DNA from: Prorocentrum cordatum
Taxonomy: Eukaryota
Reading direction: 5' to 3'
Assembly (NCBI GenBank): GCA_963575745.1
Contig: CAUYUJ010000259.1
Span: 62,001 to 126,000, forward strand
DNA: 64,000 nt
Shown here in pieces: positions 1 through 62,321 of the stretch (positions are counted from its first letter, which is position 1; every line of letters begins with the position of its first letter). A program made the translations under genes and the position numbers. Below the pieces are notes generated by a model. It was not told the origin of the DNA. It saw nothing but the letters and a program-made list of their open reading frames with translations, and did not search any database.

Positions 1-1031
1 GAGAAGGATGTGGAGGAGAAGCAAGAAGAGGAGAAGGAGGCAGAGGAGAGCAGGAGGAGGGTGAGCAGAGGGGGGGGATGATGATGAGGAGGAGGAGGAG
101 GAGGAGGAAGAAGAGGAGGAGGCCAGAGGCTTTCTTGGGAAAGTCCAGGGCTCTCTTGAGGCCATCTTGGGCAGGCCTCCTGGGCAATTTGGGGCTCTCC
201 TGGGCTGTCTTGGGGCAGTTTGGGGGCCCCTTGGGAGCCTCTTGGGGCCTCTTGGGGCTTCTTCGGGGCCTCTTGGGGGCCTCTTGGGGCTGAGAGCTCG
301 AACTGTCCGTTCGGGTCCCCCGTCTGGGCACTCTCCTGGAGCCGTCTTGGGGGCCTCTTGGGCCGTCTTGGAGGCGTCTTGGGCAGTCTTGGGGCCCTCT
401 TCGGCCGTTAGGGGACCCTCTTGTGGGCCTCTTGGGCCGTTTCGGGGCGATCTTGGGTGCCTCTTGGGGCCTCTTGGGCCGTTTTGGCGCGTCGGGAAGC
501 GGAAGAGGCAAGAACGCCAAAATCATTCAAACACGTATGGGAAATCGATGATTTTTGCCTCTTGGGGCTCTCGTGGGAAAGCTCCTGGAGGCCTCTTGGG
601 GCGCTCTGCAGGCCTCTTGGGCCGTCTGGAGGCCGTCAAGATGTCTTGGACGGATCACTTGGCGATTCGGGGTTCTCTTGGACTGTCTGTGGGGCCTCTT
701 GGGGGCACTCTTTGGCCCGTTTTGTGAAGTTCTTTTGAGCTCCGGGCTTCCCGCGGGGGGCGTCTGGCCCTGCTCCCCCGGGACGCCCCCCCCCCCTGGG
801 GGGGGGGGGAGGGATCGAAGGGAAGGGGCTTCCCTCCGACTCCATTACGGCGTTGCTCCATTTCGCTTCGGCTGGCGCGCTGAGGAGGTCCCTGGGAGAG
901 GGGGGGAGCTTCGACGAGCCCAGGGACGGGGGGGAGGCAGGGGAAGGGGACGACAGAGGCGACGACCAGCAATGAGGGGGATGACGACTTGAACGGACAA
1001 GCCCCTCGCACGCGCCGACAGGCTCGGCGGA
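1..1031 (-). mobile_element. Non-autonomous Helentron/HINE-like element, truncated by the window start; body of CCTCTTGGG-type repeats
   Basis: Ends in CACGCGCCGACAGGCTCGGCGGATT. Bases ~800-1031 align by eye with ~42900-43189, which ends CACGCGCCAACAGTGTCGGCGGATT. The interior is rich in CCTCTTGGG/GCCGTCTTGG motifs. Confidence 0.6.
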
Positions 1032-10008: not shown

Positions 10009-10043
<35 letters not shown>

Positions 10044-40469: not shown

Positions 40470-40610
40470 TGTAGTAGTAGTAGTAGTCGCAGTCGTAGTC
40501 GTAGTCGTAGTCGTAGTCGCAGGAGTAGTAGGAGTAGCAGCAGTAGTAGTTGCCGTCGTCGTAGTAGAAGTCGTCGTGGTTGTCGTCGTCGTAGTAGTAG
40601 GGTCAGCAGT
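36136..40610. repeat. Degenerate (GTA)n microsatellite, ~4.5 kb, containing an assembly gap
   Basis: Directly visible; same strand orientation as 3795-10075. Confidence 0.98.
36862..36961. other. Assembly gap (100 N)
   Basis: Run of 100 N. Confidence 1.
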
Positions 40611-42125
40611 ATTAGCAGACGTGTTCGCCGCAACGTGTAGTTGTCGCAGAATGAGGGGGGCGAGGGCAAGAATTGAGATGACGAGGGGGGGTGACGAGGT
40701 GGAGGTGGAGGAGGAGGTGGAGGTCCGGCCAGGCGGCGCTTGCCATGCTCCGCGACCTGGGCCCGCAGGCGCTTCTGCTGGCGTGCCACGAGGGCGTGAG
40801 CGAGTGCGTGGCGCGCGTGCCTTCCTCTCCTCGTCGCTGTCGTCGTCGGCGGCGTCGTTGTCGGCGTCGGCGCCGCCGTCGCCGTCGTGGCGAACGCCGT
40901 CGCCGTCGTCGTCGTCGACGCCGCCGTTGCGAGCGCCGCCGTCGGTTTCGTCGCCATTGCCGCCATCGTCGTCGTCATTTGTGTCGCCGTCGTGGCGAGC
41001 GGCGTCGTCGTTGTGGTGGTCCTCGTCGTCGTCGTCGTAGTTGTTGTCGTCATCGTGGTCGCCGTCGCCGTCGCTGTCGCAGTCGCAGTCGCAGTCGCCG
41101 CCGCCGTCGCCGTCGCCGTCGCAGTCGTCGTTCCTTTCTTCCGCCTCATCTTTCATTTGCCTGGGAAGTGGTGGAAAGAGAAGCATGCTAACCAGAGGCT
41201 GCCCTCAGCGTGGTTGTCAGTTGGAGTTGACGGAGGGCGTTGGAATTTGAGGAGGAGGAGAGGAGAAGGCGGAGGATGAGAACCCGGATAGAGGATCGAT
41301 GTCAGTGGGGTTCCTTTGTTCGAGGGTTCTCGGCTGGACCCGCCATCAAATTTTAGCCAGGACCCCTATGTGCAAACAACGCGCCTCAGATGCTTGGCGT
41401 CAGAGGGTAGTGACTAGACATTGGGACCGTCCTGGCGTCTTGCGTCCGAGGGCCGTTTCTGGACACTGGGGCCGTCCATAGACGGCTCAGGATCAAGTCG
41501 GCTCCACGGAAAGGGTCGAGGGATCCGGTGGCCATTTGCTCTAACAATGTCGAGTCTCGGGGGGGTTGGGAGGCGGAGGAAAGAGGAGGACGAACGCCGT
41601 CGTGTTGGAGGGGCTTGCCGATCTTTGCGCCCTGTAAGCTTCTTTCCTCCAGGGACTGTTGCATCTACGCTGTGCGCGTGCTCTGGCACATCACTTCAAG
41701 ACTTCACGCTTGGAACGTGCTCTTCTGCCTTTCCGCCCTTGGTCTTCCTCCTGTGCCCGCTGTGCCGAAGTAGGCCCCGCTGCATGCCACGGCCGCGACC
41801 AGAAGTCGTTGCGCTCTTCTCCTCGCGGGGCCCGCCCCCGACGGTTTCTTCCTGTCTTATCTCAGGCATCCAGGGGCTGGTGCATTTGGAGGCCCGTGGG
41901 GAACTCCGTGGGGGACTTCGGGTCCCACAGTCCCGTGCGATCAGTGGGAGGCCGCAGTCGTCGGTGGCTTGCCTGCTGGGGCTTCGTGTGTTGGCCTCCT
42001 GGGCGCCCGGCAGTCTTCGGGGGCCTCTCGGGCTATCGCGGAAGTCAGTTGGAGGCCGTTTTGGCAGTCTCGGGGGCCTCCCGTGGATTTTCCAGCAATC
42101 ACATGCCTCCTGGATCCCTCTGGCG

Positions 42126-43188
42126 ATGGCGAAGGCCTTACGGCCGGGGCCGCCGACCCTGAATGGGGAATGACAATGGTGGCGGCCACAACGACGACGA
42201 CGCTGACGTGGGTCAGAGTCCTCATGGATGCTTTTTGGGGTCTCTTCGAAGCGCTCGCTCTCGGTGGCCTCTGGGGGATAGTTTGGGGGCCTCTTGGAAG
42301 CCTTTTGGGGGCCTCTCGGGGCTTCTTGAGGGTCTCTTGCGGGCCTTCTGATTCCTGCTGGGAGCCTCTGGGTGCCGGGCTCGAAATGTCCGTTCTGGTC
42401 CCTCATTTGGGTACCCTCTTGGAGCCGTCTTGGGGGCCTCTTGTGTCGTCTTGGAGGCGTCTGGGGCCGTCTTGGCGCTCTTTTTGGCTGTTTTGTGTCC
42501 CTCCTGGACCCCTCTTGGGCCGTTTTGGGGCGATCTGGGGGGCCCCTTGGGCCGTCTTGGAAGATCGGGAAGCGGAAGAGGCGAGAACACCGACAATTTT
42601 AAGAACTGAAGGAAAATCTGTGATTTTTCCTCTTGGTGCCCTCTTGGGAGTGCTCCTGAAGGCCTCTTGGAGCGTCGTGCAGTGCTCTTGGGCCGTCTGG
42701 AGACCGTCAAGGCGTCTCTGACAGATCGTTCGGCGATGCGTGGCCCTCGTGGACCGTCTTTGGGGCCTCTTGGGGCACTCTTGGCCCGTCTTGGGGCTCT
42801 TTTGGGCGACGGCCCCCCCCCTCCCGGGACCCGGGACCCCGGACCCCCTGCCGGGACCCCCTGGGGGTAGTCGTATCTGACCCAGGACCCCCCCCCTTCC
42901 CGGCGGGGGAGGGATCAAAGGGAAGGGACTTCCCGTCGAGTCAATTGCGACGTTGCTCACTTTCGCTTTGGCTGGTGCGCTCGATGAGGAGGGCCTGGGG
43001 AAGAGGGGGGAGCGACGATGGGCCCAGCGATTGAGGAGGAGGGTGCAGGGAAAGGGGCGTTGAGCGGCGACGGGCCCAGGGAACGGGAGGGCGCAGGGAA
43101 GGGTGACGACAGAGTCGATGACTAACGGTTGACGGAGACGACGACTCCAACGAACGAGCCCCTCACACGCGCCAACAGTGTCGGCGGA
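42126..43188 (-). mobile_element. Non-autonomous Helentron/HINE-like element (~1.06 kb)
   Basis: Left end: hairpin GGCC-TTAC-GGCC (42134-42145) then CCGCCGAC (42150-42157). Right end: CACGCGCC...GTCGGCGG-AT (43180-43189), the inverted partner. CCTCTTGGG-rich body. The left boundary is approximate. Confidence 0.65.
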
Positions 43189-43324: not shown

Positions 43325-43620
43325 CGGTGGTACATCGTCTACGTACCGAATCCATAATATCAGTTTCTTTTCACATCGTCCGCGTCATCTGTCTCACAGG
43401 GGAAATATGAAGCCTTTTGGCATAGAATTCCACCGAAGCTGAGATCAAGAGGAGGGGACAGGATCGCACGGACTAGAGAGAGCAGCTTGTCACTACCCGC
43501 CACAGGGCTGGTGGAATTGACATCCCTCTTAGTTGAAATCGATGCTCTCGCCCTTGCGCCAACCAGATTCCTACTTGCACGAGATTGTCCTTCAATCGGG
43601 TCACCAGCGGCATCCAGGAA
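43325..43620 (-). pseudogene. Reverse transcriptase fragment (Penelope-like)
   Basis: The minus strand at 43354-43331 reads WIRYVDDV (YxDD catalytic motif), downstream of a FQLRGMSI segment that resembles the QxxG motif. Stops and frameshifts are present. Confidence 0.4.
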
Positions 43621-43706
43621 ATCCGCGCGGACCTTGGAAAGTTGATGTTCCTGCAGTTTTTATGTTCCTCTAACTTCACCCTTATCCCAGGCTGGTAATG
43701 CTGCTG

Positions 43707-43728
43707 TCTGTACTCATCTTGGCTCGGG
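43707..43728 (+). other. Degenerate relic dinoflagellate spliced leader
   Basis: TCTGTACTCATCTTGGCTCGGG matches DCCGTAGCCATTTTGGCTCAAG at 16/22 ungapped positions and ends 37 nt before the ATG at 43766. Confidence 0.5.
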
Positions 43729-43765
43729 CTGCTGAAAGGGCTGGCCGGCGTCTCGAGTGCAGCAG

Positions 43766-44899
43766 ATGCGGTCCTTGCGAGGTGTATTTGGCAACACTTG
43801 GTTAGTCCTGCCGATTTTGGGTGCGGTCTTGATTGGTGGCACCGTCTACCCGAGCTTGTATGCCCAGCGCGCCAGTGCCACTTCGCAGTATGTGGCCGCT
43901 ATACCTGGTTCTCTGGGAACGTTGGGGTCCGTTGGTTCGAACTCACTTCCGATCCAAACGTTGGAGAACGTCGGGATATTGAACATTGGGAGTGTCGGAA
44001 GACTGAACTTGGCTGGGTCCCCCAACGAGGTAAACGTGACCAAGTCTCCGAAAGGGACAGACGCTGCTAGTTCTCCCAACCATGGAGACGTGGATAAAGA
44101 CAAGGTGGAAGAGGCGAATGCTGACGTGGCTAGGTCTTCCAACGAGGTAAGCGTGACCAAGTCTCCCAACAAGAAAGAATCGGCTACTTCTCCCAACCAT
44201 GGAGACGTGGATGAAAACAATGCGGAACGGGCGAATGATGACTTGGTCAGGTATTTTAACGAGAAGCGCGTGGCTATGTTTCCCAATGAGGAAGATATGT
44301 TTTGTTTTGAGGGGCAATGTTCGTTGCGCCTTGATCGCGAGAGCGCGGAGTTCCCAAACTTTTTTCTTGGTGTCGGTCCTGGGAGATCTGGAAGCACTAG
44401 CCTTATTTCCGCACTGAGAGATCATCCAAGTGTGATTGTAGGCGACGCACGAAATCATCCGACCCAGAAGTGCTGCTACTACGAGCTGTACATACTGGAC
44501 AAGGTGAGGGAGTGTGCGAAAGGTCAGAGCGCGTACGTGGATTTCTTCACCAGCGACACGAAATCAAAAAGGAAAACCCATTGGTTCGGGGAGAAAACTC
44601 CCATGTACTCGTCGCACCGGCTGGTCCCCTTCCGGGCGAGGGCCATGTTTGGCCCCTCGCTCAAGTTGTTTCTCACCTGGCGCAATCCAGCCCAGATCTT
44701 CGCGTCGCGGTATCTTCAATTGTATGAAGAGTCGAGGGCAACTTTGAAGGATGCAAATTTTAGGCAGTGGGCGGATCGTCACTTGGACACTTTCAGGGGA
44801 ATTGCACAGTGCCGCAAGGACCTGCTGCAGAAGTTTAGTTTGACGGAGCGGATGATTTACGATTCGACGTTTACCATTCATGCGACAGCCGCAATGGAA
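43766..44899 (+). CDS. PAPS-dependent sulfotransferase (heparan-sulfate 3-O-sulfotransferase-like, type II membrane), 5' part/exon 1
   Basis: N-terminal hydrophobic anchor WLVLPILGAVLIGGTVY; 5'-PSB motif FPNFFLGVGPGRSGSTSL...HP; FGEKTPMY; 3'-PB motif LKLFLTWRNPAQIFASRY. Confidence 0.88.
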
Positions 44900-45695
44900 G
44901 ATTCTATAGGCTTACGCCACATCCGCCGACCCCTATAAACTACTGCGTTTCCAGGACTGCATTTCACGAGGCTTGTCCGAATCATGACACGGCGCTCGAC
45001 ATCGTTCCTGTTGCTTCGTTGCTGTCATCGTATCTCTTGGTGCTCTTTTGCGGCCTTTTGGTGGCATCTTGGCCTGTCTGCAGGCCATATCCGGCCGCCT
45101 CGAGGCATCTTGGGCCAAGTTTTGGGGCCTCTTGGGGGCTTCCTGGGGGCTTCTTGGAGGCCTTTGAGGTTCTCTTGGGGGTCCCTCAGGGCCTCTTGGG
45201 TTGTTCTTGGAGCGCTGGGGGCGTCCTCGGGCCGAAGGCTCGAAACGGTGCCCTGTGGGCTCCGTCTTGGAGCCGTCTTGAGCGCCTCTTGTGCCGTCTT
45301 GAGCGCCTCTTGGGCTGTGTTGGCAACCTCTTGGGCCTTTGTGGGGACCTCTTGGGCGCTTCTTGGGCCGTCTTGGGGCGGTCTTGTGGTCTTGTGAGCT
45401 TCTGGAGCCGTTGTCGACGCCGTGAAAGCTCAAAGACCGTGTATATATATATATATACATATCAAAAAGGTGCGTTTTCCCATCGGAAATGGATGAGTTT
45501 TGCTTGTTGGGGACCTCTTGGGGCGCCTCTTAGTCGCATATTAAAGCCTTGTGGACGCGTCTGGGACCGTCTTGGAGGCGTCTGAGATCGTCTGAATGCC
45601 ATCTGGGGCGTCTTGGCTCGATCTGTCGGCGACTCGGAGCTTTCTTGGACCGTCTCGGGGGCCCGCTGTCGACGCCGTGAAAGCTATACATATAT

Positions 45696-45730
<35 letters not shown>

Positions 45731-45733
<3 letters not shown>

Positions 45734-46091
45734 GAGGTTGGGGGGTGAGATCGAAGTGGAACGGAGAGCCCCCCTACCGGGAAATCGATTTCGGTTTCGT
45801 GTTCGTGCGTGCCGTGCGGGCGAGGCGAAGCTGCGTGGGCGGGTGAGAGAAAGTCTCCTGTGGCTGAGGTGCGGCCGGACCAAATGACTTCCTTCCGGGC
45901 GGCCGGGGCCCCGCGGTGTCCCGCCGGTGTCCCGCTGGTGTCCCGTGGCTGAGGCGCAGCCGGACCAAATGATTCCCTTCCGGGCGGCCGGGGCCCCGCG
46001 GTGTCCCGCCGGTGTCCCGCGGTGTCCCGCGGTGTCCCGCGGTGTCCCGCCGGTGTCCCGCGGTGTCCCGCGAGGATGATGATGATGATGA

Positions 46092-46166
<75 letters not shown>

Positions 46167-46318
46167 GATGATGATGATGAGATGATGATGATGATGGTGT
46201 CCCGATGAAGATGATGATGATGTTGATGATGGTGTCGATGATAATGATAGTGTCCCGATGATGAGGATGATGATGCTCATGATGGTTATGTTGATGATGA
46301 TGACGATGATGGTGTCCC

Positions 46319-46361
<43 letters not shown>

Positions 46362-47227
46362 CCGATGATGTTGGTGATGATGATGTTGATGGAACTGGTG
46401 TCCCGGCGATAATGATGTTGATATGATGATGTTGATGATGATTATGGTGTCCCGATGATGATGCTGATGATGATGATGGTGATGCTGATGGTGTCTCGAT
46501 GATGATAATAATGATAATGACAATGTTGATGATGATGTTGCTCATGATGATGATGGTGCCCCAATGATGATGATGTTGATGATTCTGATGACGATGATGA
46601 TGCGATGTTCATGATGATGATGGTGCCCCGAAGGTGATGACGATGTTGATGATAATGTTGTTGATGCGAACGATGGTGATCATGATGGTGTCCTGATTAT
46701 GATGATGATTATGATGATGCTGCTGCTGATGATGATGATGATGACGATGACTGTGTCCCGATGATGATGATGATCATGATGAAGATGATGATGTCGATGA
46801 TGAGATGATGATGGTGATGATGATGATGATGTTGTCCCGATGATGATGCTGACGTTGATGATGATGTTTATGATGATGATGACGGTGCCCTCATGATGAT
46901 GACGATGTTGGTGATGATGTTGATGATGATGATGTTGATGATGGTGATGATGATGATGATGATGATGACGTTGATTGTGAGAGCGATTGTGATATCGATA
47001 GTGAGATCGATATTGAAACCGAATGTGAGATCGATTGTGTGATCGATTGTGAGATCGATTGTGAGATCAATTGTGAGATCGATCGAATGAGATATATTGA
47101 GATCGATTGTGAGATCGATCGAGTGAGATCGATCGAGCGAGACCGATAGTGAGATCGATACTGAGATCGATAGTGAGACCGATCGAGTGAGACGTTGGTT
47201 CCCTTATCACCCGAAGGGTGGTCGTAT

Positions 47228-47265
<38 letters not shown>

Positions 47266-47634
47266 GAGGTTGGGGGGTGAGATCGAAGTGGAACGGAGAG
47301 CCCCCCTACCGGGAAATCGATTTCGGTTTCGTGTTCGTGCGTGCCGTGCGGGCGAGGCGAAGCTGCGTGGGCGGGCGAGAGAGAGTCTCCTGTGGCTGAG
47401 GCGCGGCCGGACCCAATGATTCCCTTCCGGGCGGCCGGGGCCCCGCGGTGTCCCGCCGGTGTCCCGCTGGTGTCCCGTGTGGCTGAGGCGCGGCCGGACC
47501 AAATGATTCCCTTCCGGGCGGCCGGGGCCCCGCGGTGTCCCGCCGGTGTCCCGCGGTGTCCCGCGGTGTCCCGCGGTGTCCCGCAGTGTCCCGCGGTGTC
47601 CCGCCGGTGTCCTGTCCCGCGAGGATGATGATGA

Positions 47635-47690
<56 letters not shown>

Positions 47691-47939
47691 GATGACGATG
47701 ACGGTGTCCCGATGAAGATGATGATGTTGATGATGGTGTCGATGATACTGATAGTGTCCCGATGATGAGGATGATGATGCTCATGATGATTATGTTTATG
47801 ATGATGACGATGATGGTGTCCCGATGATGATGATGATTCCGATGATGTTGGTGATGATGATGTTGATGGAACTGGTGTCCCGGCGATGATGATGTTGATG
47901 ATGATGTTGATGATGATTATGGTGTCCCCATGACGATGC

Positions 47940-47970
<31 letters not shown>

Positions 47971-48688
47971 GATGGTGATGCTGATGGTGTCTCGATGATG
48001 ATAGCAATGATAATGACGATGCTGATGATGATGCTGCTCATGATGATGATGGTGCCCCAATGATGATGTTGTTGATGATGATGCGATGATCATGATGATG
48101 ATGTTGCCCCGAGGATGATGACGATGTTGATGATGATGTTGCTGATGAGAACGATGGTGATCATGATGGTGTCCCGATTATGATGATGATTATGATGATG
48201 CTGCTGGTGATGATGACGATGACTGTGCCCCGATGATGATGATGTTGATGTTGATGATGAGATGATGATGGTGATGGTGATGATGATGTTGTTCCGATGA
48301 TGGTGCTGACGTTGATGATGATGCTTATGATGATGATGACTGTGCCCTCATGATGATGACGATGTTGGTGATGATGTTGATGTTGATGATATTGATGATG
48401 ATGATGATGAGGATGACGTTGATTGTGAAAGCGGTTGTGATATCGATAGTGAGATCGATATTGAGACCGAATGTGCGATCGATTGTGTGATCGATTGTGA
48501 GATCGATTGTGAGATCAATCGTGAGATCGATCGAATGAGATAGATCGAGTGAGATCGATCAAGTGAGATCGATCGAGCGAGACCGATAGTGAGATCGATA
48601 CTGAGATCGATAGTGAGACCGATTGAGTGAGACGTTGGTTCCCCCCCCCCCCCCCGAACCCTTATCACCCGAAGGGTGGTCGTATAGG
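45731..48688 (+). repeat. Two direct copies (45731-47230 and 47263-48688) of a ~1.5-kb element containing (GGTGTCCCGC)n, (GAT)n and (GAGATCGATTGT)n blocks
   Basis: Both copies start TCGGAGGTTGGGGGGTGAGATCGAAG after (TA)n and end CCCTTATCACCCGAAGGGTGGTCGTATAGG. Confidence 0.85.
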
Positions 48689-48889
48689 TATACACGTGGC
48701 ACGTGTGTGCCCAGGCTCATACAACAAACTGAAGGGGCGTTTGGAGCAGGAGTGAAATGCAACATCGAAGTCGCACTCGAGCGCAAGTGGGGTTGCCACA
48801 CCTTGCGATGTGTGTACCAGGGCCCCCAGGAAGCCTTAGGAGGCCTGGCTTGGATACCAGAAGAGGCTCCAGGAGGCCCCAGGATTGTG

Positions 48890-51240
48890 AGTGTTATTGT
48901 TTTTTCCCTGTCGCGCTGGCCTCTACAGCATGTTTCCCATTGAGGGCCTCCACAAAAAGGATTACGTACGATTGAGAGCCTTCACAAAAGGATTCCTGGT
49001 GAGAGCCTCCACAAAAGGAGTCCTATTGAGAGCCTCTACAAAAGGATTCCTGGTGAGAGCCTCTGCAAAAAGGATTCCTATTGAGTGCCTCTACAAAAGG
49101 ATTTCTATTGAGGGCCTCTACATAACGATTCCTATTGGAAGCCTCTACAGCGTGATTCCTACTGAGAGCCCCAACAAAAAGGATTCCGAATCAAAGCCAA
49201 TACAAAACGACTCCTATTGAAACCCAAAACGTATGGATTCCTATTGAAAGCTTGTGCAAGAAGAATGTTGCTGACAGCCTCGGCAAAATGATTCCTATTC
49301 AGAGCCTCTACGAAAAGGATTCCTATCGGAAGCCTTTACAACAACATTCCTATTGAAAGCGTTTGCGGAAGGTTTCCGATTGAGAGCCTCTACGAAACGG
49401 ACTCGTATTGAAAACCAATACAAAATGATTAGTATTGTAACGCAGTGCACATGGCTTCTTATTGAGAGCCTCTACAACCTGCTTCCTATTGAGAGCCTCT
49501 ATAACAAGAATTCCTGTTGAATTCCCCGACACAATGGATGCTTCATTGAGACCCGATACACATGGAATTCTTTTGGGAGCCTGTGCAAAAGGCTTCCTGT
49601 TGCGAGTTTCGACGAAAGGATCCGGTTGAAAGCCTTTTACAAAAGGATCCCCATTGAAACCCAATGCACATGTATTCCTATTGGGAGCCTGTGCAAAGGA
49701 TTCCTGCTGAGAGCCTCCACGCAAAAATCCCATTGAGAGCCTCTACAACAAGGATTCCTATTCAGAACCTCTGCGAACAAGGATTTTTTCGAAAGCCTTT
49801 TACAAACATATTCCCATTGAGAGCCTCTACAAGAATGATTCCTATTGAAAGCCAGTGCATAATGAATACTACTGGAAGTCAATACACATGGTTTCCTGTT
49901 GAAAGCCTGTGCAAAAGTATTCCTGTTCAGACCCTCCACGACAAGATTCCCATTGAGAGTCTCTTCGAAATGATTCCTGTTGAAAACCTCTACACAAGGA
50001 TTCCGAACCAGAGGTTCTTACGAAAAAGATTCCTATTGAACGCCCAAACCAAAGGATTATTATCGAAACGCGATACAAATGACTTCCTACTGAAAGCCTG
50101 TGCAAAACCATTCATGTTGACAGCCTCAACGAAAACATTATCATGGAGAGCCTCTTCATAAGGATTCCTACTGAGAGCCCCCCAAAAAGGAATCCTAGTG
50201 AGAGCCTCTGCAACATCATTCCTAGCGAGAGCCTTTACAACACGATTCCTATTAAGAGCCTCTACAAAAAGATTCCTATGGAGAGCCTCCACAAGAAAAT
50301 CCCAGTGAGAGCCAATACAAACATGATCCCGACTGAAACACAAGACCACTGCATTACTATTGAGATCCGGTGCAAAATGATTCCTGTTGAGAGCCTCCAC
50401 AAAAGGATTCTCATTGAGAGCCTCTACAAAAGGATTCCTATTGAGAGCCTCTTCGCAACGATTCCTATTGAAAGCCTCTACACAAGGATTCCTAGTGAGA
50501 GCCTGTGCAAAAAGTATTCCTATTGAAAGCTAATGCAACACGAGTATGATCGAAACGCAATACAACTTGCTTCCTATTGAGAGCCTGTGCAAAAGGATTC
50601 CTGTTGAGAGCCTGTGCGCAATGGGTTCCTTTTGGGAGCCTGTTCAAACGGATCCCTTTCTCAGCGCGTTCAGTTTCTCATCCTCAGCAGTCCTGCTCAT
50701 CATCATCATCGTCATCGTCATCATCAGCATCATCATCTTCGTCATCATCATCATCGTCATCATCATTCTCGCCATCATCGTCGGGATCGCACTCGTCTTA
50801 TCTAGCTCCTCTTCCCCCTCGATCATATTATCGAGTTTTTCACTCTCCTGATCCCTTTCCTCCTCATCCTCATTCCCCTCCTGAGGGTGCACAGGGACGG
50901 GGATCCAGCGCGAGAGAATATTAAAAAGCGTGCCGCCCTCAGCCCGAGGTTGCAGTGCCCCGCCGCCGCCCTCAGCCCGAGGTTGCACGGCCCCGCTGAT
51001 GGATGGATGGATGGCACGCTCATCAAGGCAGCGACTGAAAGCAAGCTTGCAAGCGAGAGAAAATATTACGTCGATCAGTAAATCGTTTTGTCCTTGCCGC
51101 CCAAGGAGAGGAGCAGCTGACGGGACAGGCCCCAACGCACCCCGCTGAAGGAGGATAAAAGGATGAGGCAGTGCGACGGAGAACATGGAGCAGATGAGGG
51201 AGGGGATACTATGCACGACCATGTGCGGGGGGGGGGGCAA
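48890..51240 (+). repeat. ~30-bp satellite (GATTCCTATTGAGAGCCTCTACAAAAG) plus a unique tail, copy 1
   Basis: Many tandem units; the block and its tail (50560-51240) recur at 53290-54715. Confidence 0.88.
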
Positions 51241-51537
51241 GTGTATATATATATATATATATATATATCAAAAAGGTGCGTTTTCCCATGGGAAATAAAT
51301 GAGCTTGGCTCGTTGGGGACCTCTTGGGGCGCCTCTTGGCCGCGTATTAAAGCCTTGTGGGCGCGTCTGGGACCGTCTTGGAGGCATCTGAGATCGTATG
51401 AATGTCATCTGGGGCGTCTTGGCTCGATCTTTCGGCGACTCGGGGCGTTCTTGGGCCGTCTCGGGGGCCCGCTGCCGACGCCGTGGGATCTCATGTGCCG
51501 TGTGTGTGTGTGCGTGTGTGTGCGTGTGTGTGTGTAT

Positions 51538-52572
51538 ATTGCAGTGGCCTTTGGCCAGCGCCGCCGATCCGGGGCGCTCGGTGTTATTCTCCAGACGCAG
51601 ACATTATGGGCGCACATTCAACCGCGCAAACTTCTCGGGCTACATGCGAAAGGACGTAGGAATGCAGTTGGGTCAATAGAGCCATATCGCAACAGTGGTT
51701 CTATCAACGGCGGGGCGCTGGCAGTGACCGTGGGGGCGGGGAATGATAATGCCATGCAAATTCCATACAGGATGCCGATCATTATGGAAACTCACGATAC
51801 GTCTTGCGCGGAGTTTTGTTACGAAACATGTGGCCTGGGCGATGTGGTGCGAGCGGTGGAGGCGAGCCTATCGGCGCAAAGGCGCCCTCGTGGGGCGTTT
51901 TTTTGAGCCATCTTAGGAGCTCGTCAGGGCGTCGTGGGGGCTTCTTGGGGGCTTTCGGAGGCCCTATTGGAGGCTCTTGGGGCCTCCTGGGGGCCTCGCG
52001 GGCTGGAAGGTTAGATTTTTTTTCGCTGTTCGTCCCTCTTTTGGGTCCTCTTGGGGCCGTCTTGGGGGCCTGTTGGGGCCGTTTTGGGGTTGTCTGGGGG
52101 CTTTCTGGCCCGTCTTCGAGCGGTCTTGGGGGCCTCTTGGGCCGTCTTGGAGCGCCGGAAAGCAGCAAAAAAACGACGACCCCAAAACATTTTAAAAGAA
52201 ACCAGTGGGAATCAACAGTTTTTGCTTCTGGGGGCCATCGTGGGAGGCCTCTTGGAGGCCTCTTCAGACGTCTTGGCAGGCTCTTGGGCCGGCTTGGGGC
52301 CATCCTGGGCGTGTCCGGGCGATCCTTCGGGGCCTCGGGACTTTCTTAGACCACCTTCAGAGACTTTTGCGGCCGCGGCCACCCTTCCAGCGCACCCTCG
52401 AGAGTAGAGCCTTCTGTAAACGCAGCGCCCCGCATCCGCCGGAAACTCGCACCCCCCCCCCCCCATCCCCCCTTCCCCGGCAGAGCCACCCCGGCACTCC
52501 CCCCCCAGAGGCTGAGGCTCAGCCTCGAGGCCGTAGCTGAGACTCCTTGAAACTCACGCGCCGGATTGGCGG

Positions 52573-52573
<1 letters not shown>
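51538..52573 (-). mobile_element. Non-autonomous Helentron/HINE-like element nested in a (TG)/(TA) tract
   Basis: Left end: ATTGCAGT-GGCC-TTT-GGCC then CCGCCGATCCGG (51561-51572). Right end: CACGCG-CCGGATTGGCGG-AT (52561-52574), an 11/12 inverted match. Confidence 0.7.
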
Positions 52574-52606
<33 letters not shown>

Positions 52607-53289
52607 ATATATATATGGTAGCCCCCCACATGATCATACATGTTTTTCTTATTATGTTTATTATTGCTCGGCGTCGCTCCTCCTCCTCCTCCTCCTCCTC
52701 CAAATCCCCCTCCTCCCCCTCCTCTTCGAACGCCTTCGAAGAATTGCGAGAAATCATCGGCATTGCGGAAAACAGCAAACACCCTTGGAGAAAAACAAAA
52801 AAAATCAAAAAAAAAAAAAACAAAAAAAAAAAGCCAAACAAAACTAAACAACATTATGATTTCGGGAGAACCTTGCCCCCCCCCCCCAACCCCAGAATCT
52901 CCCAGGTTTTTTTTTTTTTTTGGGGGGGGGGGGGTTTATTTCAAGCGTTTTCGCTGACTCCTCCACCCCACTCCGCCTCCCCCCCCCTCCCCCTCCTCGG
53001 CCTTCTCCCCCCTCCTCCTCCCCCCCTCCCCCTTCCCCCCCCCTCCTCTCCCTCCTCCCCCTCCTCCCCCTCCTGGCCCTCCTCCTCCTCCTCGGTCCTC
53101 TCCTGTCGCAGTTACTGTTTTGCTGTGCTTTCTGAACGGCGTTCTGTTTCATCGCGCAAGCCCTTTCGGGTGGGTGGTCGGCATCGACCGTTTCGCGGGC
53201 AAGACGGCTTGCAAGACGGCTTTTTCGCTTTCCAGTCTTAAGGCTTTGGTGTCTTTGGTTTGGTTTGTATTTCCTTGTGAGTGTTCTTG

Positions 53290-54715
53290 TTTTTTTTCCT
53301 GTCGCGCTGGCCTCTACAGCACGATTCCTATTGAGGACCTCTACACAAGGATTGCGATTGAAAGCCTCTACAAAAGGATTCCTAGTGAGAGCCTCCACAA
53401 CAAGGGGTCCTATTGAGAGCCTCTACAAAAAGGATTCCTAGTGAGAGCCTCTGCAAAAGGATTCCTATTGAGAGCCTGTACAAAAAAGGATTCCTATTGA
53501 GAGCCTCTACGAAACGATTCCTATTGAAAGCCTCTACAGCGTGATTACTACTGAGAGCCTCAACAAAAAGGATTCCGAATCAAAGCCAATACAAAACGAT
53601 TTCTATTGAAACCCAAAACGTATGGATTCCTATTGAAAGCCTGTGCAAGAGGAGTGCTGCTGAGAGCCTCGATAAAATGATTCCTATTCAGAGCCTCCAC
53701 GGACAAAAAGGATTCCGATCGACAACTTTTACAACAAGATTCCTATTGAAAGCGTTTGCACAAGGATTCCGATTGAGAGCCTCTACAGAACGGACTCCTA
53801 TTGAAAACCAAAACAAACATATTAGTATTGTAGCGCAGTGCGCATGGCTTTTTATCGAGAGCCTTTTACAACCTGCTTCCTATTGAGAGCCTCTATAACC
53901 AGAGTTCCTGTTGAATTCCTCTACACAAAGGATGCTTCATTGAAACCCAATACAAATGGAATTATCTCGGGAGCCTGTGCAAAAAAAGGCTTCCTGTTGA
54001 GAGTTTCGACGAAAGGATCCAACGCTATACAGATGGCTTCATATTGAGAGCCTGTCCAAAAAGGATTCCTGTTGACAGCCTGTGCACAATGGGTTCCTTT
54101 TGGGAGCTTGTGCAAAAGGATCCTTTTCTCAGCGTGTTCAGTTCCTCGGCCTCTGCAGTCCTGCTCATCACCATCGTCATCGTCATCGTCATCATCATCA
54201 GCATTATCACCATCGTCATCATCATCATCATCGTCATCATCATTCACGCCATCATCGTCGGGATCGCACTCGTCTTATCTAGCTCCTCTTCCTCCTCGCT
54301 CATATTATCGAGTTCTTCACTGTCCTGATCCCTCTCCTCCGCATCCTCATTCCCCTCCTGAGGGTGCAGAGGGACGGGGATCCAGCGCGAAAAAATATTA
54401 AAAAAACGTGCCGCCCTCGGCCCGAGGTGGCAGTGCCCCGCCGCCGCCCTCAGCCCGAGGTTGCACTGCCCCGCTGATGGATGGATGGATGGCACGCTCA
54501 TCGAGGCAGTGACTGAAAGCAAGCTTGCAAAGCGAGAAAAAGTATTACGTCGATCAGTCGATCGTTTTGTCCTTGCCGCCCAAGGAGAGGGGCAACTGAC
54601 GGGACAGGCCCCAACGCACCCCGCGGAAGGAGGATAAGAGGATGAGGCAGTGCGACGGAGAGCATGGAGCAGATGAGGGAGGGGATACTATGCACGACCA
54701 TGTGCGGGGGGGGAG
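53290..54715 (+). repeat. ~30-bp satellite plus tail, copy 2 (shorter array)
   Basis: Collinear with 48890-51240; both end GACCATGTGCGGGGGGG followed by (TA)n. Confidence 0.85.
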
Positions 54716-54719
54716 TGTC

Positions 54720-54778
<59 letters not shown>

Positions 54779-56589
54779 CAAAAAAGGTGCGTTTTCCAAT
54801 GGAAAATGAATGAGCTTGGCTCGTTGGGGACCTCTTGGGGCGCCTCTTGGCCGCGTATTAAATAAAGCCTTGTGGACGCGTCTGGGACCGTCTTGGAGGC
54901 ATCTGAGATCGTCTGAATGCCATCTGGGGCGTCTTGGCTCGATCTTTCGGCGACTCGGGGCGTTCTTGGGCCGTCTCGGGAGCCCGCTGGTGCGATTTTG
55001 GCGCGTCGCGTGGCCCTCTGCTCCCCCGTGGCGCGTTCGGGCATGGGTTCCCCGGGGGCCGAGGGGGGGCCCTCGTGGGGTTGTCTCGGGGCCCTTTTGC
55101 GCAGTTTTGAGCGGTTCTGGGGCTGCGTTTGCGCCCTCTTGGGCCTTCGTGGGGGCCTCTTGGGCGCTTCTTGGGCCGTCTCGGGGCGGTCTTGTGAGTT
55201 TCTGGAGCCGTTGTCGACGCCGTGGGGGCTCAGAGACCGTGTCTATAGCAGCGGGGTGCGTTTCCCCATGGGAAATGGGTGAGCTTTGCATGTTGGGGAC
55301 CTCTTGGGGCGCCCATTGGTCGCATGTTAAAGCCTTGTGGGCGCGTCTGGGGCCGTCTCGGAAGCATCTGAGATCGTCCGAGTGCCATCTGGGGCGTCTC
55401 GGTTCGATTTTTCGGCGATTCGGGGCGTTCTTGGACCGTCCCGGGGGCCCGTTGGTGCGCTTTTGGCCCGTCGTGGGGCCGTCTGCCCCCCCGTGGCGCG
55501 TTCGGGCATGGGTGCCCCGGGGCCGGGGGGGGGCCCTTTTGGGGTTGTCTCGGGGCCCATCTTGCGCCGTCTTGAGCGCCTCTTGGGCTGCGTTGGCGCC
55601 CTCTTGGGCCTGTGTGGGGGCCTCTTGGGCGCTTCTTGGGCCGTCCTGGGGCGGCCCTGTGAGCTTCTGGGGCCGTTGTCGAGCCCGTGAAAGCTCAAAG
55701 GTCGTGTATATATAATAGTAATAATACCAATGATAATACAAAACTAGTAAATTGTGCGTTTTCCCATCGACCATGGATGAGTTTTGCTTGTTGGGAACCT
55801 CTTGGGTCGCCTACTGGTCGCGCATTAAAGCCTTGTGGACGCGTCTGGGACCGTCTTGGAGGCGTCGGAGATCGTCTGAATGCCATCTGGGGCGTCTTGG
55901 CTCGATATTTCGGCGACTCGGGGCGTTCTTGGGCCGTCTCGGGGGCCCGCTGGTGCGCTTCTGGCGCGTTGTGGGGCCCCTCTGCTCCCCCATGGCGCGT
56001 TCGGGCATGGGTGCCCGGGGGCCGAGGGGGGGCCCTCGTGGGGTTGTCTTGGGGCCCATCTTGCGCCGTCTTGAGCGCCTCTTGGGCTGTGTTGGCGCCC
56101 TCTTGGGCCTTTGTGGGGGCCTCTTGGGCGTTTCTTGGGCCGTCTTGTCGCGGCCGCGTGAGTTTCTGGAGCCGTGGTCGACGCCGTGAAAGCTCAAATG
56201 CCGTACATATATATATACGTGTATATAGACATGTGTACATATATATATATAAATATATATAGTTATGTATATATCAAAGCAGTGCGTTTTCCTTCCAGAA
56301 ATGGATGAGTTTGGCTCGTTGGGGACCTCTTGGGGCGCCTCTTGGCCGCATATTAAAGCCTTGTGGACGCGTCTGGGACCGTCTTGGAGGCATCTGAGAT
56401 CGTCTGAATGCCATCTGGGGCGTCTTGGCTCGATCCTTCGGCGAGTCGGGGCGTTTTTGGACCGTGTCGGGCCGGGGGCCCGTTGTCGACGCCGTGAAAG
56501 CCCAAAGGCCGCATATTCCCCAACCAGAGCTTGCTCCTGTAGGGGTCCTAGCGGATATAAAGCTGAGGTGAGGTCGGCGGCCGATTTCG

Positions 56590-56970
56590 GTGGCCGGGGC
56601 CGGGTGCCCGGGTGCCTGGGGGTGCCCGGGTGGCCGGTTTCGGTGGCCGGGCCCGGGTGCCCTCGTGCCCGGGGGTGCCCGGGTGCCCGGGGGTGCCCGG
56701 GTGCCCGGGGGTGCCCAATGGCCCAGTGGTCCTATAGCCCCATAACCCTATAGCCGTATAGCCCGATAGCCCTGTAGCCTTAAACCTTTGTATCCTTATA
56801 GCCGCAATAGCCTTACATCCCTATAGCCTTATAGCCCCATCGCCCATATAGCTCTATAGCCCCATAGCCCTATAACCCTATGGCCCTATAGGTCACACTC
56901 CTATAGCCCTATAGCCCCATAGCCCTAAGTCCGATCGCCGTATAGCCCTATAGCCCGATAGCCCTATAGC
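56590..56970. repeat. (GGTGCCCGG)n followed by (TATAGCCC)n short tandem repeats
   Basis: Directly visible. Confidence 0.8.
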
Positions 56971-57004
56971 CCGAACAGAAATTTGATTGGGGCTTTATTC
57001 CGGT

Positions 57005-57074
<70 letters not shown>

Positions 57075-57519
57075 ATAAAGGTGCGTTTTCCCATAGGAAA
57101 TGGCTGAGTTGTGCTGGTTGGGGACCTCTTGGGGCGCCTCTTGGTCGCACATTAAAGCCTTGTGGACGCGTCTGGGACCGTCTTGGAGGCGTCGGAGATC
57201 GTCTGAATGCCATCTGGGGTTCGATCTTTCGGCGAGTCGGGGCGCTCTTGGACCGTATCGGGGGCCCGTTGGTGCGCTTTTGGCGCGTTGTGGGGCCCTC
57301 TGCTCCCCCATGGCGCGTTCGGGCATGGGTGCCCCGGGGCCGAGGGGGGGCCTTCTTGGGGTTGTTTTGGGGCCCTTTTGTGCCGCTTTGAGCGCCTCTT
57401 GGGCTGTGTTGGCGCCCTCTTGGGCCTTTGTGGGGGCCTCTTGGGCGCTTCTTGGGCCGTCCTGGGGCGGTCTTGTGAGCTTCTGAAACCGTTGTCGACG
57501 CCGTGAAAGCTCAAAGACC

Positions 57520-57559
<40 letters not shown>

Positions 57560-57826
57560 GTATATATACATATTGATGTATGTATGTATGTATGTATGTC
57601 TGTATGTATTTTTTTGTATATCTATATATGTATATACATGCATTTGTGTGTATGCATGTATGCATGTATGCATATGTATGTGTATATGTAGATGTAGATG
57701 TATATGTATATGTATATGTGTATGTATATGTATATGTATATGTACATGTATATGTATATGTATATTTATGTATATATATGTATATATGTATACATATATA
57801 GATACATATATATGTTTATATATTTG

Positions 57827-57861
<35 letters not shown>

Positions 57862-58319
57862 CATAACGGTACGTTTACCCATGATAAATGGCTGAGTTCT
57901 GCTTGTTGGGGACCTCTCGGGGCGCCTCTTCGTCGCATTTTGAAGCCTTTTGGACGCGTTTGGGACCGTCTTGGGGGCGTCTGAGATCGTCTGAATGCCA
58001 TCTGGCGCGTCTCGGTTTGATCTTTCGGCGACTCGGGGCGTTCTTGGACCGTCTCGGGGGCCCGTTGGTGCGCTTTTGGCGCGTTGTCGGGCCCTCTGCT
58101 CCCCCATGGCGCGTTCGGGCATGGGTGCCCCGGGGCCGACGGGGGGGGGGCCTCGTGTGATTGTCCTGGGGCCCATCTTGTGCCGTCTTGAGCGCCTCTT
58201 GGGCTGTGTTGGCGCCCTCTTGGGCCTTTGTGGGGGCCTCTTGGGCGTTTCTTGGGCCGTCCTGTCGCGGCCTCGTGAGCTTCTGGGGCCGTTGTCGACG
58301 CCGTGGAAGCTCAAAAACC

Positions 58320-58351
<32 letters not shown>

Positions 58352-58766
58352 CACAAAGGTACGTTTTCCCATAGAAAATGGATGAGTTTTGCTTGTTGGG
58401 GGCCTCTTGGGGCGCTCTTAGTCGCATTTTGATTGAAGCTTTTTGGACGTGTCTGGGACCGTCTTGGAGGCATCTGGGATCGTCTGAATGCCATCTGGAG
58501 CGTTTTGGCTCGATCTTTCGGCGATTCGGGGCGTTCTTGGACCGTCTCGGGGGCCCGTTGGTGCGATTTTGGCGCGCTGTGGGGCCCTCTGCTCCCTTAT
58601 GGCGCGTTCGGGCATGGGTGCCCCGGGGCCGAGGGGGGGTTCGGGCTTGGGTCCCCGGGGCCGGGGGGGGGGTCGAATCTCCGGTTTGGGGTCCCTATGG
58701 GGGGGGGGGGGGGTATGGGGGGTGAGCCATCTCACGCGCCTAGAGACCCACGAGGGGTCGGCGGAG

Positions 58767-59147
58767 TACCTTGTTCGATTGTGTGGCCACATGGGTGATG
58801 GTCCGCATGCAGCTTTGGAAGGTCGAGGGATGTTCCGTCGGTGGGCTCACGTTTTTGGTAAAAGTCAAGTGTTGTGTGTAGATCTGGAAGACCAGAACAC
58901 TAGAATGAACTGGGTGCTCGACCGGATTGCAGCGCATCTGGGCGTTGATCGAAAAGGTTTCACTGATCAGCCTAGTGCCCACAAGCGCCTCAACGCCTCG
59001 TTCGACATTCTTGCGCGGAACCAGATGCGCTACGGCTCACAAGCGGTCAAGGAGATGTGGGGCAGCATCATGGAGATCCAGGCCATGGATCGTGATAGTT
59101 TGACGTTAGAAGACCTGCGCTTATTCTCAGAGTTGTGCGGTCAGTGA
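58767..59147 (+). CDS. Sulfotransferase 3' part/exon 2
   Basis: YLVRLC...FRRWAHVFGKSQVLCVDLED...VLDRIAAHLGV matches the l.rW...F..eQ+l....E...l..+..fLG+ C-terminal pattern of HS3ST-like enzymes, which exon 1 lacks. TGA stop at 59145-59147. Confidence 0.8.
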   Translation, partial: YLVRLCGHMGDGPHAALEGRGMFRRWAHVFGKSQVLCVDLEDQNTRMNWVLDRIAAHLGVDRKGFTDQPSAHKRLNASFDILARNQMRYGSQAVKEMWGSIMEIQAMDRDSLTLEDLRLFSELCGQ

Positions 59148-59389
59148 TCGCGCTCTTGTTTCACCCGCACTCCTCTCTTGCCGCCCCCCTCAGCCCTGGC
59201 CAGCCCTGGCCGCTTCCACTTTCACTGACTTTCGAACTTCCCCAGTTTCACTCGTCACGCGTCGCCAGCGTGCACGTCTTGAAAGGTGTTTGCCTCTGGA
59301 GGCCTCGCGCGGCGCGTGATAGTAGTATGATCTAGTCCATATCAGTTCCGCAAGCTATGGGTCGACTCCCGCGCGGCGATGCTCCAGAG

Positions 59390-59470
59390 TCAGTCCGACG
59401 TGAATCCGACGTGCATCCGACGTAGTCCGATGTGGACCCGGCGTGCATCCGACGCGGATCCGACGAAATC
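59390..59470. repeat. 11-bp tandem repeat (GTGCATCCGAC)
   Basis: About six degenerate copies. Confidence 0.65.
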
Positions 59471-60329
59471 GGGTCTCAAATTGCCGCGGGAGGCCTCCAT
59501 AAGATTCTTCATTAGCTCCTTGCGGCCAGTGAATGTGGGCTCTCGAGGCCCATTCGCCAATGCGGAGGGAATGAGTTGCATAACAGGCAGGTCGGGAGCT
59601 TGCAGCCGAACAAAAGCGTGAACATCCTCTTTCCGAGGTCCGCGCGGACCTCCGACAGTTTATGTCTACGCCGTCGTTGTTATTCCTCTACAGTCGGGCC
59701 GCTGAGAAAGAAACCCTGTTCGTTCGGGAGGTACTCGGTGTTCCTTAGTTGTTTTACAGTCTGTCTTAGGTGTTTGTTCGGCTTTCTATGGGAGATCGAA
59801 GTTCAATTGACTGGGTTTCTTCATAAGCGTGGGGCGTACCCCTCCGACGTGGGTCAACCTCGCCTCGTTGTCGCGCCGCGACTGGGGTCGGCTACCCGCG
59901 ACAGGGGGTCGTTGTGGGGCTTTCGGCGGGGGTGACGCCCCCCCGACGCTGATTAAGAAACTCGGAGTACGTAAAAAGGTGCCTCGTTCCTTATCTTGGG
60001 TTCCTTATGCCAGCGTTTCGCCTGTATATGCATGGCGGTTGCTGCACAGGTTGATCGTGAGAGGGGGCTCGAGGTTAGACGTCCGCGGCTCTCAGGGAGC
60101 AGGCCCTGGGTGAGTGAGGCCTGCCCAGATTGAGGAGGAGGAAGGAGTACGATGAGAGTGAGGATGCTCGAGGAGAAGAGTAGGTATCGCTCGGACGTGT
60201 GATTTTTGTTTCTCGTCGAGGCGAGGACCCTCGAAGAGCCGTTTGGGGCACTCTGCGAAGCACAAGACACACGCACGAAGCCGGACAATGCCCGGGGAAG
60301 GGACCCCCAAGCGACGGGGACAACGTGGG

Positions 60330-61570: not shown

Positions 61571-62321
61571 CGTATCCATTGTGGCCCAACCCCATTTCCC
61601 CCCCTCGTGGGGGGCGGGTCGCTGCGGGAATGGACCTCATGGGCGCCAGCCTGGCGCGCGGGCGGCAGCTCTGCGCCAGGGCCGGCCCCGAGCCATGGAA
61701 GCACAACGAGACGAGGAACGAGGGCGGCTGCCCGAACGAGTGGCGGCCTTCGAACCAGCGCCAGAGAGAAATCGACCGCTTCGGCGCCTGCAAGGCGCGC
61801 CGACTCGCCCGCAGGCGGCGCCGCGACGCCTGCGAGACGGGGCTTCGCGCAGCTGGCATCAACACACAGACGAGGTACATCGTGATCCAGATCCCCAACC
61901 AGAGTAAGCCCCATGATGGGCACCAGAGCGACTGGAAGGGCGACGTGCAGCCCGAGGAGCAGAACGCGCCGCCCGACACGGACCTCGAAGCGGAACGGCT
62001 CCTGGGCGAACCGCTAGACCTCGCGCGCCCTGCGCCGCCAGCGGTCGCCTACCCCACGGAGGTCTACCTGCAGGCGCGTGCAGAGGTGGCTACCCGAGCT
62101 GCCGCACGCCGGGCCGAAGCTGCTGGACAGGCAAAAGCCGAACGCCAGTCGAGGGCTGCACTACCAGACCCACCCACACCAGCGCAGCAACCCCCGATTG
62201 CTGGCAAGACGTCCTGTGCGGGGAGGGCGCGAATACGCCAGCGCAGCAATCCCCGCTTGATGTGTGCAGTATGTATAGTGCGAGTGGCACATGGGCACCC
62301 GTGGCGGGCATGCTCGCACCG

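Follow-up and report, generated by a model that had tools for sequence, protein, structure and literature searches.

How does a gene yield an intact protein when its two coding halves lie 13.9 kb apart? This question arises in a 64-kb window of the Prorocentrum cordatum genome (the whole stretch of DNA analyzed, 64,000 nt of contig CAUYUJ010000259.1, to which all coordinates and strands refer), where a P. cordatum-type sulfotransferase-like gene is divided into an exon 1 that ends at 44899 and a distant exon 2. An earlier note, made from the sequence of this DNA, had read the intervening insert as a rolling-circle element of the Helentron type that may act as a GA-AG intron. Here we report that RNA matching this gene lacks the insert, which we call piece 1, and also lacks a second, much shorter piece of its 3' untranslated region (UTR), piece 2. 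We conclude that both pieces are probably transposon-derived, inverted-repeat-bearing, non-canonical introns excised from transcripts of this locus.

Exon 1 (43739..44899, + strand) contains the coding sequence (CDS) from the ATG at 43766, a frame of 378 codons that is open throughout 43766-44899 and encodes 378 amino acids (aa). They span an N-terminal region of repeats and the initial two thirds of a sulfotransferase-like domain, GPGRSGST included. If this frame is continued into the insert, it reaches a stop 12 codons later. Exon 2 (58764..59294, + strand) supplies a GAG codon and then the frame 58767-59147, which encodes 126 aa and a stop (stop codon 59145-59147), with 3' UTR after it. The only assembly gap in the window, a run of N at 36862-36961, lies outside the gene region.

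Homologs link the two frames. Among 156 candidates, six proteins matched exon 1 residues 170-378 at E<=0.001, and in all six the similarity continues into sequence like that of exon 2. The best of them, P0003, is a P. cordatum 'unnamed protein product' of 495 aa and a paralogue that differs from the window gene at ~15 residues; the other five sit on short, transcript-sized contigs of 1.3-1.8 kb. In addition, a 505-aa protein on record, P0012, corresponds exactly to exon 1, one E, and exon 2. When P0012 and the six homologs are aligned, the junction is free of gaps in 7/7 sequences and follows the pattern A-x-x-E-[EQ]-[YH]-L, with E378 and L381 invariant. The two frames are thus halves of one gene, separated by 13.9 kb and flanked at the junctions by the strings that the earlier note had quoted, with P0012 spanning both. 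The 90% cluster of P0003 includes P0012 and two shorter proteins that share its join, one with an MMETSP-transcript label and one from JGI/IMG. Its only two NCBI models are the diverged paralogue P0003 and P0009, an NCBI protein of 118 aa on a 663,409-bp contig that is encoded by the window itself and consists of exon 2 alone, so that public annotation models under a quarter of the protein (118 aa of 505). A metagenome scan with P0012 produced 62 pattern matches, 0 of which were confirmed.

RNA that matches the gene passes directly from exon 1 to exon 2. A 650-nt piece of exon 1 was found in full in 20 of 24 listed runs, representing 9 studies, with 4 of the 20 recorded as poly-A RNA. We mapped the contigs of four of the 24 runs (X4, X13, X1, and X19, each from a different study and two of them poly-A RNA libraries) to positions 43400-59400 at 98% likeness. 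In each of these runs, one contig joins 44899 to 58764, skipping 13,864 nt (piece 1, or intron 1; 44900..58763, + strand), and the joining contigs contain 0 other letters over 760-1,729 nt, covering exon 1 without mismatch. The mRNA junction reads GAA GAG TAC, restoring the conserved AME-E-YLV. This is precisely the empty site that had been anticipated, and the proposed check of RNA for spliced molecules came out positive in 4/4 mapped runs.

The boundaries of the skipped piece are not those predicted. Excision of 44900-58766 as a GA..AG intron would have skipped 13,867 nt and given a protein of 504 aa. The frame arithmetic of that proposal is sound (378 + 126), but the RNA and the conserved homologs keep one more Glu, giving 505 aa; the missing piece is therefore 44900-58763 rather than 44900-58766, with ends GA..CG, and the AG at 58765-58766 is retained in the mRNA within the Glu codon. 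Because the position of the joint has a 2-nt ambiguity, the ends may be written as GA..CG, as AT..GG (44901-58764), or as TT..GA (44902-58765). Depending on placement the acceptor is CG, GG, or GA, not AG, and the donor is GA in one of the three equivalent placements. Two nearby acceptors, AG|G at 58754 and AG|T at 58766, are not used. Piece 1 has no polypyrimidine tract: G accounts for 51% of its final 100 nt. Within piece 1, RNA cover in the four runs consisted only of repeat-derived bits, 47272-47510 and 33 nt at 44905-44937, and none of the four yielded a contig crossing the exon-insert border; neither absence is evidence by itself.

The RNA also appears to be mature. In the X1 contig, 9 letters that are not from the window (TTTTGGCTC) precede 43736, after which the window's AAG follows; we take the part of these letters that lies beyond TCAAG to be spliced leader as well. 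The dinoflagellate spliced leader ends in TCAAG, as stated by Farhat et al. (PMC7789003). The X1 contig thus opens with the end of the spliced leader, identifying it as a processed, trans-spliced mRNA, for which the AG at 43737..43738 (+ strand) is the trans-splicing acceptor and the mRNA body starts at 43739.

Piece 1 begins exactly at the terminus of a repeated element. Its first 35 nt (44900..44934, + strand) form a terminal motif, GATTCTnnAGGCTTACGCCACATCCGCCGACCCCT, the start of which coincides with the 5' cut. A 25-nt query from the left end, scanned against metagenome contigs, identified three, L001-L003, that share this 35-nt motif, again beginning exactly at the position of window 44900, with unrelated flanks upstream. 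Downstream of the motif they diverge and then enter CTCTTGGGGCC-type repeats, as the window does at 45060-45400. One of them, L003, holds the reverse complement of the 35-nt motif too, which points to a family with long inverted ends. A 362-nt contig from X19 has 44905-44937 in common with the window and carries a further, different left flank. These matches support the view that the gene is split by an insert derived from a mobile element.

The two ends of piece 1 are related to each other. A perfect 13-nt inverted repeat has its 5' arm (TCCGCCGACCCCT) at 44922..44934 (+ strand), intron positions 23-35, and its 3' arm (AGGGGTCGGCGGA) at 58753..58765 (+ strand), ending at the 3' cut. A perfect complement of this length was equalled by 2/2000 random pairs of window pieces, and with one mismatch allowed the repeat extends to 14 nt, equalled by 5/3000. 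The 11-mer CCGCCGACCCC occurs just twice in the whole window, once in each orientation, at 44923-44933 and 58754-58764; apart from this mutual relation, the ends of piece 1 are unique within the window. The 3' arm corresponds to the inner portion of the terminal repeat that characterizes the family. Because these inner 13 nt of the inverted end remain and the outer 22 nt are missing, we interpret the insert as belonging to an inverted-repeat family but truncated at its right end, and it has no target duplication. The absence of a long target-site duplication agrees with what had been noted before.

A second piece, which the earlier note does not mention, is missing downstream of the stop codon. 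In two of the four runs (X13 and X19), contigs follow the window as far as 59294, and their next 79-84 letters match it from 59503 onward, skipping 208 nt in the 3' UTR (piece 2, or intron 2; 59295..59502, + strand). The sequence that follows constitutes exon 3 (59503..59586, + strand; 3' UTR), of which 79-84 nt are visible in the two contigs, so that its 3' limit is provisional. Piece 2 has the ends TC..AA, and its cut cannot be shifted, there being a flanking direct repeat of 0 nt. It too carries an inverted repeat: a 17-nt 5' arm at 59297..59313 and a 3' arm at 59483..59499 (both + strand) are complementary at 16/17 positions, a match with one mismatch that was equalled by 2/3000 random pairs. 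The arms occupy positions 3-19 from the 5' end and 4-20 back from the 3' end, so the RNA also lacks the 2 and 3 bases outside the repeats. In both the minimum-energy and the centroid fold of piece 2, this terminal stem closes the structure (z = -1.87). A search confined to the 64-kb window found no other copy of piece 2, which is best read as a short element resembling a miniature inverted-repeat transposon. Piece 1 itself (44900-44905) and the exon that follows piece 2 (59503-59508) open with the same hexamer, GATTCT. Both downstream exons begin with GA, which, in two cases, may be chance.

How might such pieces leave the RNA? We propose that piece 1 began as an insertion of a member of the repeated inverted-repeat family and that its interior has since come to be mostly tandem arrays. 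Within each piece, the inverted repeats would pair in the pre-mRNA and draw its two ends together, and excision at or near the foot of the stem would then restore the ancestral codon string GAA GAG TAC. One candidate for the machinery is a tolerant dinoflagellate spliceosome that accepts a GA donor with a non-AG acceptor, helped by the pairing of the ends; the other is a structure-guided pathway that cuts and ligates. The lack of a standard dinucleotide at either end of piece 2 suggests either a tolerant spliceosome or cutting and ligation. From the joints and the predicted stems we infer that removal occurs on RNA from this locus, that pairing is needed, and that one of these machineries acts. 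A wider proposition, that core dinoflagellates have a hairpin-guided removal of transposons from mRNA that is independent of splice-site dinucleotides, perhaps independent even of the spliceosome, and exact enough to heal a CDS, we consider unlikely. If it were true, a class of introns would be invisible to P. cordatum gene models, which allow only G[T/C/A]..AG, and this would explain why the protein modeled here contains exon 2 only.

Several observations weigh against removal at the RNA level. The geometry of the two pieces is uneven: piece 2 is cut 2 and 3 nt outside its stem, and in piece 1 the 3' cut falls at the end of the stem and the 5' cut 20-22 nt before it. Direct repeats of 3-5 nt, of the kind found in Amoebophrya, are missing (2 nt at piece 1, 0 nt at piece 2). 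Adjacent, in-frame canonical alternatives were available for piece 1, combining the GA at 44900 with AG|G at 58754 or AG|T at 58766, yet the contigs use neither. There are two cases, both in a single transcript; RNA libraries may contain DNA, and contigs drop rare variants. Finally, an identical, uninterrupted copy of the gene would explain the base-perfect restoration without effort.

This last point leads to the competing explanation that we take most seriously, one that we regard as possible without expecting it to be the answer: the copy in the window could be a silent copy or allele disrupted by transposons, with the mRNA coming from an identical, uninterrupted twin, such as a tandem or segmental duplicate of recent origin, that the assembly lacks or has collapsed. 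The earlier note's caveat that the gene may simply be disrupted is unlikely for an expressed gene and persists in this form, with an intact twin as the expressed copy. Such a twin would provide a base-perfect empty site for both pieces and call for no new mechanism. Dinoflagellate genes are often multi-copy, according to Mendez et al. (PMC5032977) and Bachvaroff & Place, and at least one paralogue of this gene is known (P0003). BUSCO stands at 61.4% for the predicted proteins of the published assembly, as given in PMC10666404, and no contig in the four runs crosses from exon 1 into the insert. However, RNA from 4 studies matches this locus without a single difference over as much as 1.7 kb, a span that takes in the UTRs, whereas the paralogue differs at ~15 residues, and the 90% cluster contains no intact, identical model. 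Two independent insertions would both have to be absent from the twin. Moreover, at the empty site of an inverted-repeat transposon one copy of the target duplication should remain; piece 2 is flanked by no such duplication, and extra bases beyond its repeats are missing from the RNA on either side, which is unlike an empty site. Duplications within the insert are 80-89% alike while the exons show 0 differences, which argues that this is not a long-dead copy, on the assumption that the duplications arose in place. If an intact twin does exist, the locus is an ordinary transposon-disrupted duplicate.

The remaining explanations are far less probable. It is very improbable that the joints are artefacts, whether from a reverse transcriptase jumping across paired repeats or from an insert that is an assembly error. 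Stable GC-rich stems, which are known to cause template switching, do close both skipped pieces, and piece 1 has a 2-nt microhomology. But the microhomology at piece 2 is zero, an identical single joint recurs in 4 runs of 4 studies and exactly restores a conserved reading frame, and a jump would require as template a 15.6-kb unspliced poly-A RNA. As for misassembly, the insert begins at the exact terminus of an independently attested family, and the region has no N gap. We find it just as hard to believe that piece 1 is an ordinary GA..AG spliceosomal intron, either cut at 44900-58766 or with position 58762 miscalled or polymorphic (A, not C) to give GA..AG|GA. Its GA donor, its 'GATT|CT' start, and a next exon starting with GA do fit the introners of Symbiodinium and Polarella as set out in a preprint (10.1101/2020.10.14.339549), and GA makes up 23.8% of P. 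cordatum donors according to PMC10666404. The first version would skip 13,867 nt and lose the Glu, in conflict with 4/4 contigs that skip 13,864 nt. A miscall at 58762 is unlikely because this C lies within the perfect 13-nt repeat and within the family motif, where L003 has it as well, and neither version rescues piece 2 with its TC..AA ends. Least probable of all is the Helitron- or Helentron-type rolling-circle element that had been suggested for the insert, in favor of which the lack of a long target-site duplication is the sole point. Helitrons and Helentrons have TC at the 5' end and CTRR with a hairpin at the 3' end, and insert at A|T or T|T; the insert here is flanked by A|G (between GAA and GAG), starts with GATTCT, and ends with GGCGGAG, which is not CTRR-like. 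Its terminus is of the inverted-repeat type, from a family with inverted terminal motifs. Pfam searches of 36 open reading frames (ORFs) of >=110 aa in or over the insert gave 0 above cut-off and no Rep or helicase, a test that alone leaves room for a non-autonomous copy.

The interior of piece 1 is a mosaic of tandem repeats and satellites. All of the following are on the + strand. A first copy of a ~470-500-nt unit, 'U', at 45246..45690 is followed by two tandem copies, 86% alike, of a 1.5-kb block (45700..48692), in each of which an 85-87-nt repeat and a 12-nt repeat accompany a long (GAT)n tract. A 27-nt satellite of ~64 copies occupies 48885..50660, with a second block at 53310-53804, and the 1.6-kb segment 49883-51474 is duplicated at 53342-54989 (80% alike). 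At 54720..58640 lies an array of ~8 'U' units, 465-800 nt from start to start and with 81.4-89.0% blast identity, interrupted by an 8-nt satellite, CCTATAGC (56731-56972), and by TA-rich tracts; weak relatives of 'U' lie upstream of the gene, at 42.3-42.5 kb. The idea that the insert grew by tandem amplification and holds duplicated blocks is in line with this structure. The 8-nt satellite, present in ~30 copies, resembles CTATAGGC, which is found near the tip of the 35-nt motif on the opposite strand. An Rfam search of 43400-59700 at E<=1 gave 61 matches, all under the gathering score and with no group I/II intron among them; these sub-threshold matches were to microRNA, small nucleolar RNA, and other small-RNA models, mostly in TA- or GAT-rich tracts.

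Other repeats are found elsewhere in the window. Low-complexity repeats of the CTCTTGGGGCC type occur at 208-949, 42266-43057, and 45100-45400, that is, on both sides of the gene and in the insert, as well as in all three metagenome contigs, so this repeat is evidently very abundant in this genome. Two blocks of a degenerate trinucleotide repeat (GTA/GAT type, GC skew ~+0.6), 3.6-6 kb long and 70-75% alike, lie at 3760-10080 and 36964-40620, the second beginning directly after the 100-N gap at 36862-36961. A candidate relict spliced leader at 43717-43728, just upstream of the gene, was rejected as chance: at 3 mismatches, the window contains 34 matches, against 32 expected. Positions 62319-62343 hold a near-complete spliced-leader sequence (..CCGCGGCCATTTTGGCTCAAG), with the 12-nt leader end matched exactly, near the start of a 508-codon frame (62279-63802) that has a third-position GC of 0.86 and no Pfam match. 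This looks like the relict leader of a retroposed gene. Pfam searches of 14 other ORFs in the window, 13 of them outside the gene, identified no family.

The gene product is, judging by its sequence, probably a sulfotransferase, as the earlier note had named it, though at scores that fall short of thresholds. The match to Pfam Sulfotransfer_3 reaches 24.2 bits, below the cut-off of 27, and 3/7 homologs match a Pfam sulfotransferase at E<=0.01. In PDB, the sulfotransferase domain of heparan sulfate N-deacetylase/N-sulfotransferase matches over the GPGRSGST loop (E=0.0028), with a second, weak stretch of the same match in the exon-2 part; a profile search against PDB gave 0 matches. Sulfotransferase clusters account for 22/30 matches in the Atlas. 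An AlphaFold2 model built from the 7-sequence alignment had a mean predicted local distance difference test (pLDDT) score of 37.1, too poor to use. Within exon 1, a coding tandem repeat with a 117-nt unit (44010..44286, + strand; 2.0-2.3 copies, 79-82% matches) encodes the SPNHGDVD-type N-terminal region, which none of the more distant homologs has. The paralogue P0003 lacks 10 residues, HPTQKCCYYE, opposite window 44453-44482, that are kept by all five other homologs covering the place. In the window copy, these 30 nt have no canonical splice ends; the absence from P0003 could be a real deletion, or its gene model could have been trimmed around another insertion that cannot be modeled.

How do the two pieces compare with introns already described? 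They come closest to the non-canonical introns with inverted repeats that are known in dinoflagellates from Amoebophrya, a member of the Syndiniales (Farhat et al. 2021, PMC7789003). As reported there, non-canonical introns make up >60% of the total in Amoebophrya, and among these 11-30% carry inverted repeats of 8-20 nt together with direct repeats of 3-5 nt. The pieces described here share with them, as far as that account goes, absence from RNA without GT-AG or any fixed dinucleotides, inverted repeats in the 8-20-nt range (13 nt and 17 nt here), within ~30 nt of each intron end and able to form a hairpin that joins the exons, and a cut position that varies relative to the hairpin (PMC7789003). 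They also have in common a transposon-like, non-autonomous nature, with no transposase inside, and a dinoflagellate host. They differ in having no 3-5-nt direct repeat at the borders, in the 13.9-kb length of piece 1 (vs introns of 40-1000 bp in PMC7789003), in the 5' arm of piece 1, which lies 22 nt inside, and in their host, a core photosynthetic dinoflagellate for which all published introns are of the G[T/C/A]..AG type. Of the features of Amoebophrya introns, we thus find non-canonical borders and an inverted repeat, and not the direct repeat. If removal is indeed at the RNA level, inverted-repeat non-canonical introns are not peculiar to parasitic Amoebophrya and occur also in a core dinoflagellate that forms blooms and has a genome of 4.75 Gb; such introns can then be 14 kb long and sit within a coding domain.

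In P. cordatum itself, introns have a mean length of 4,709 bp and are enriched in inverted-repeat 'introner elements', according to Dougan et al. 2023 (PMC10666404). As described there, the gene callers admitted only GT, GC, or GA donors with AG acceptors; introns like pieces 1 and 2 could therefore not have been modeled, neither piece having the standard dinoflagellate AG acceptor and the TC donor of piece 2 falling outside GT/GC/GA. Callers with this restriction truncate or split such genes, here leaving 118 aa of a 505-aa protein. Our literature search, with the supplements of Dougan et al. and Farhat et al. outside its scope, found no report of introns other than G[T/C/A]..AG in Prorocentrum. 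Like the P. cordatum introner elements (PMC10666404) and the introners of Symbiodinium and Polarella, as presented by Roy et al. (10.1101/2020.10.14.339549), piece 1 originates from a DNA element. With the latter it also shares an inverted repeat that ends at the 3' cut, a start of G-H-N-N followed by CT (GATT|CT), a next exon beginning with GH, and a GA donor, which the preprint links to young introns. Those introners, however, are spliced at an AG acceptor and carry a repeated target duplication of 4-8 nt, from which a splice site is derived. In piece 1, by contrast, the acceptor is CG, GG, or GA, the outer 22 nt are missing, and the tetramer is not repeated (GAGT/TACC follow), so it does not belong to the class with a 4-nt GHNN duplication. 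Piece 1 thus looks like a dinoflagellate introner in all respects but one, its CG acceptor; piece 2, with TC..AA, is outside all classes that the preprint, in the part considered here, describes for Symbiodinium and Polarella. A further likeness is to the identically repeated intron boundaries of core dinoflagellates in Mendez et al. 2015 (PMC5032977), a study that also mentions a dinoflagellate gene with a 26-kb intron. Piece 1 has a 2-nt GA at each border, and this repeat is why the cut cannot be placed to the base. Unlike piece 1, which has no AG acceptor, the boundaries given by Mendez et al. always include GG or AGG and fit AG|G, and piece 2 is free of any such repeat.

Outside the dinoflagellates, two systems resemble this locus. 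The nonconventional introns of euglenids (PMC11282704), which are excised as a circle according to that source, likewise have non-canonical borders, no polypyrimidine tract, terminal inverted repeats that join the ends, a suspected origin from miniature-transposon-like elements, and lengths from tens to thousands of nt. Their consensus pairing of CAG with CTG (+4..6 / -8..-6) is missing here, and the lineage is unrelated. In animal SOS splicing, as laid out in a 2025 Nature paper (PMC12779559), transposons with inverted repeats are cut out of mRNA, also where they sit in UTRs; the sites, seldom GU-AG, fall within the repeats or close to them, and repeat pairing is the trigger, as the pairing predicted here may be. 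SOS splicing, though, is imprecise, with many isoforms and indels, whereas we see one exact joint in contigs that would hide rare forms; its factors AKAP17A, CAAP1, and RTCB are, on the evidence of that paper, known from animals only. The P. cordatum gene thus connects introner biology, the nonconventional introns of euglenids, and SOS splicing in animals, and, as an expressed locus, it offers a concrete test case for distinguishing the spliceosome from other machinery.

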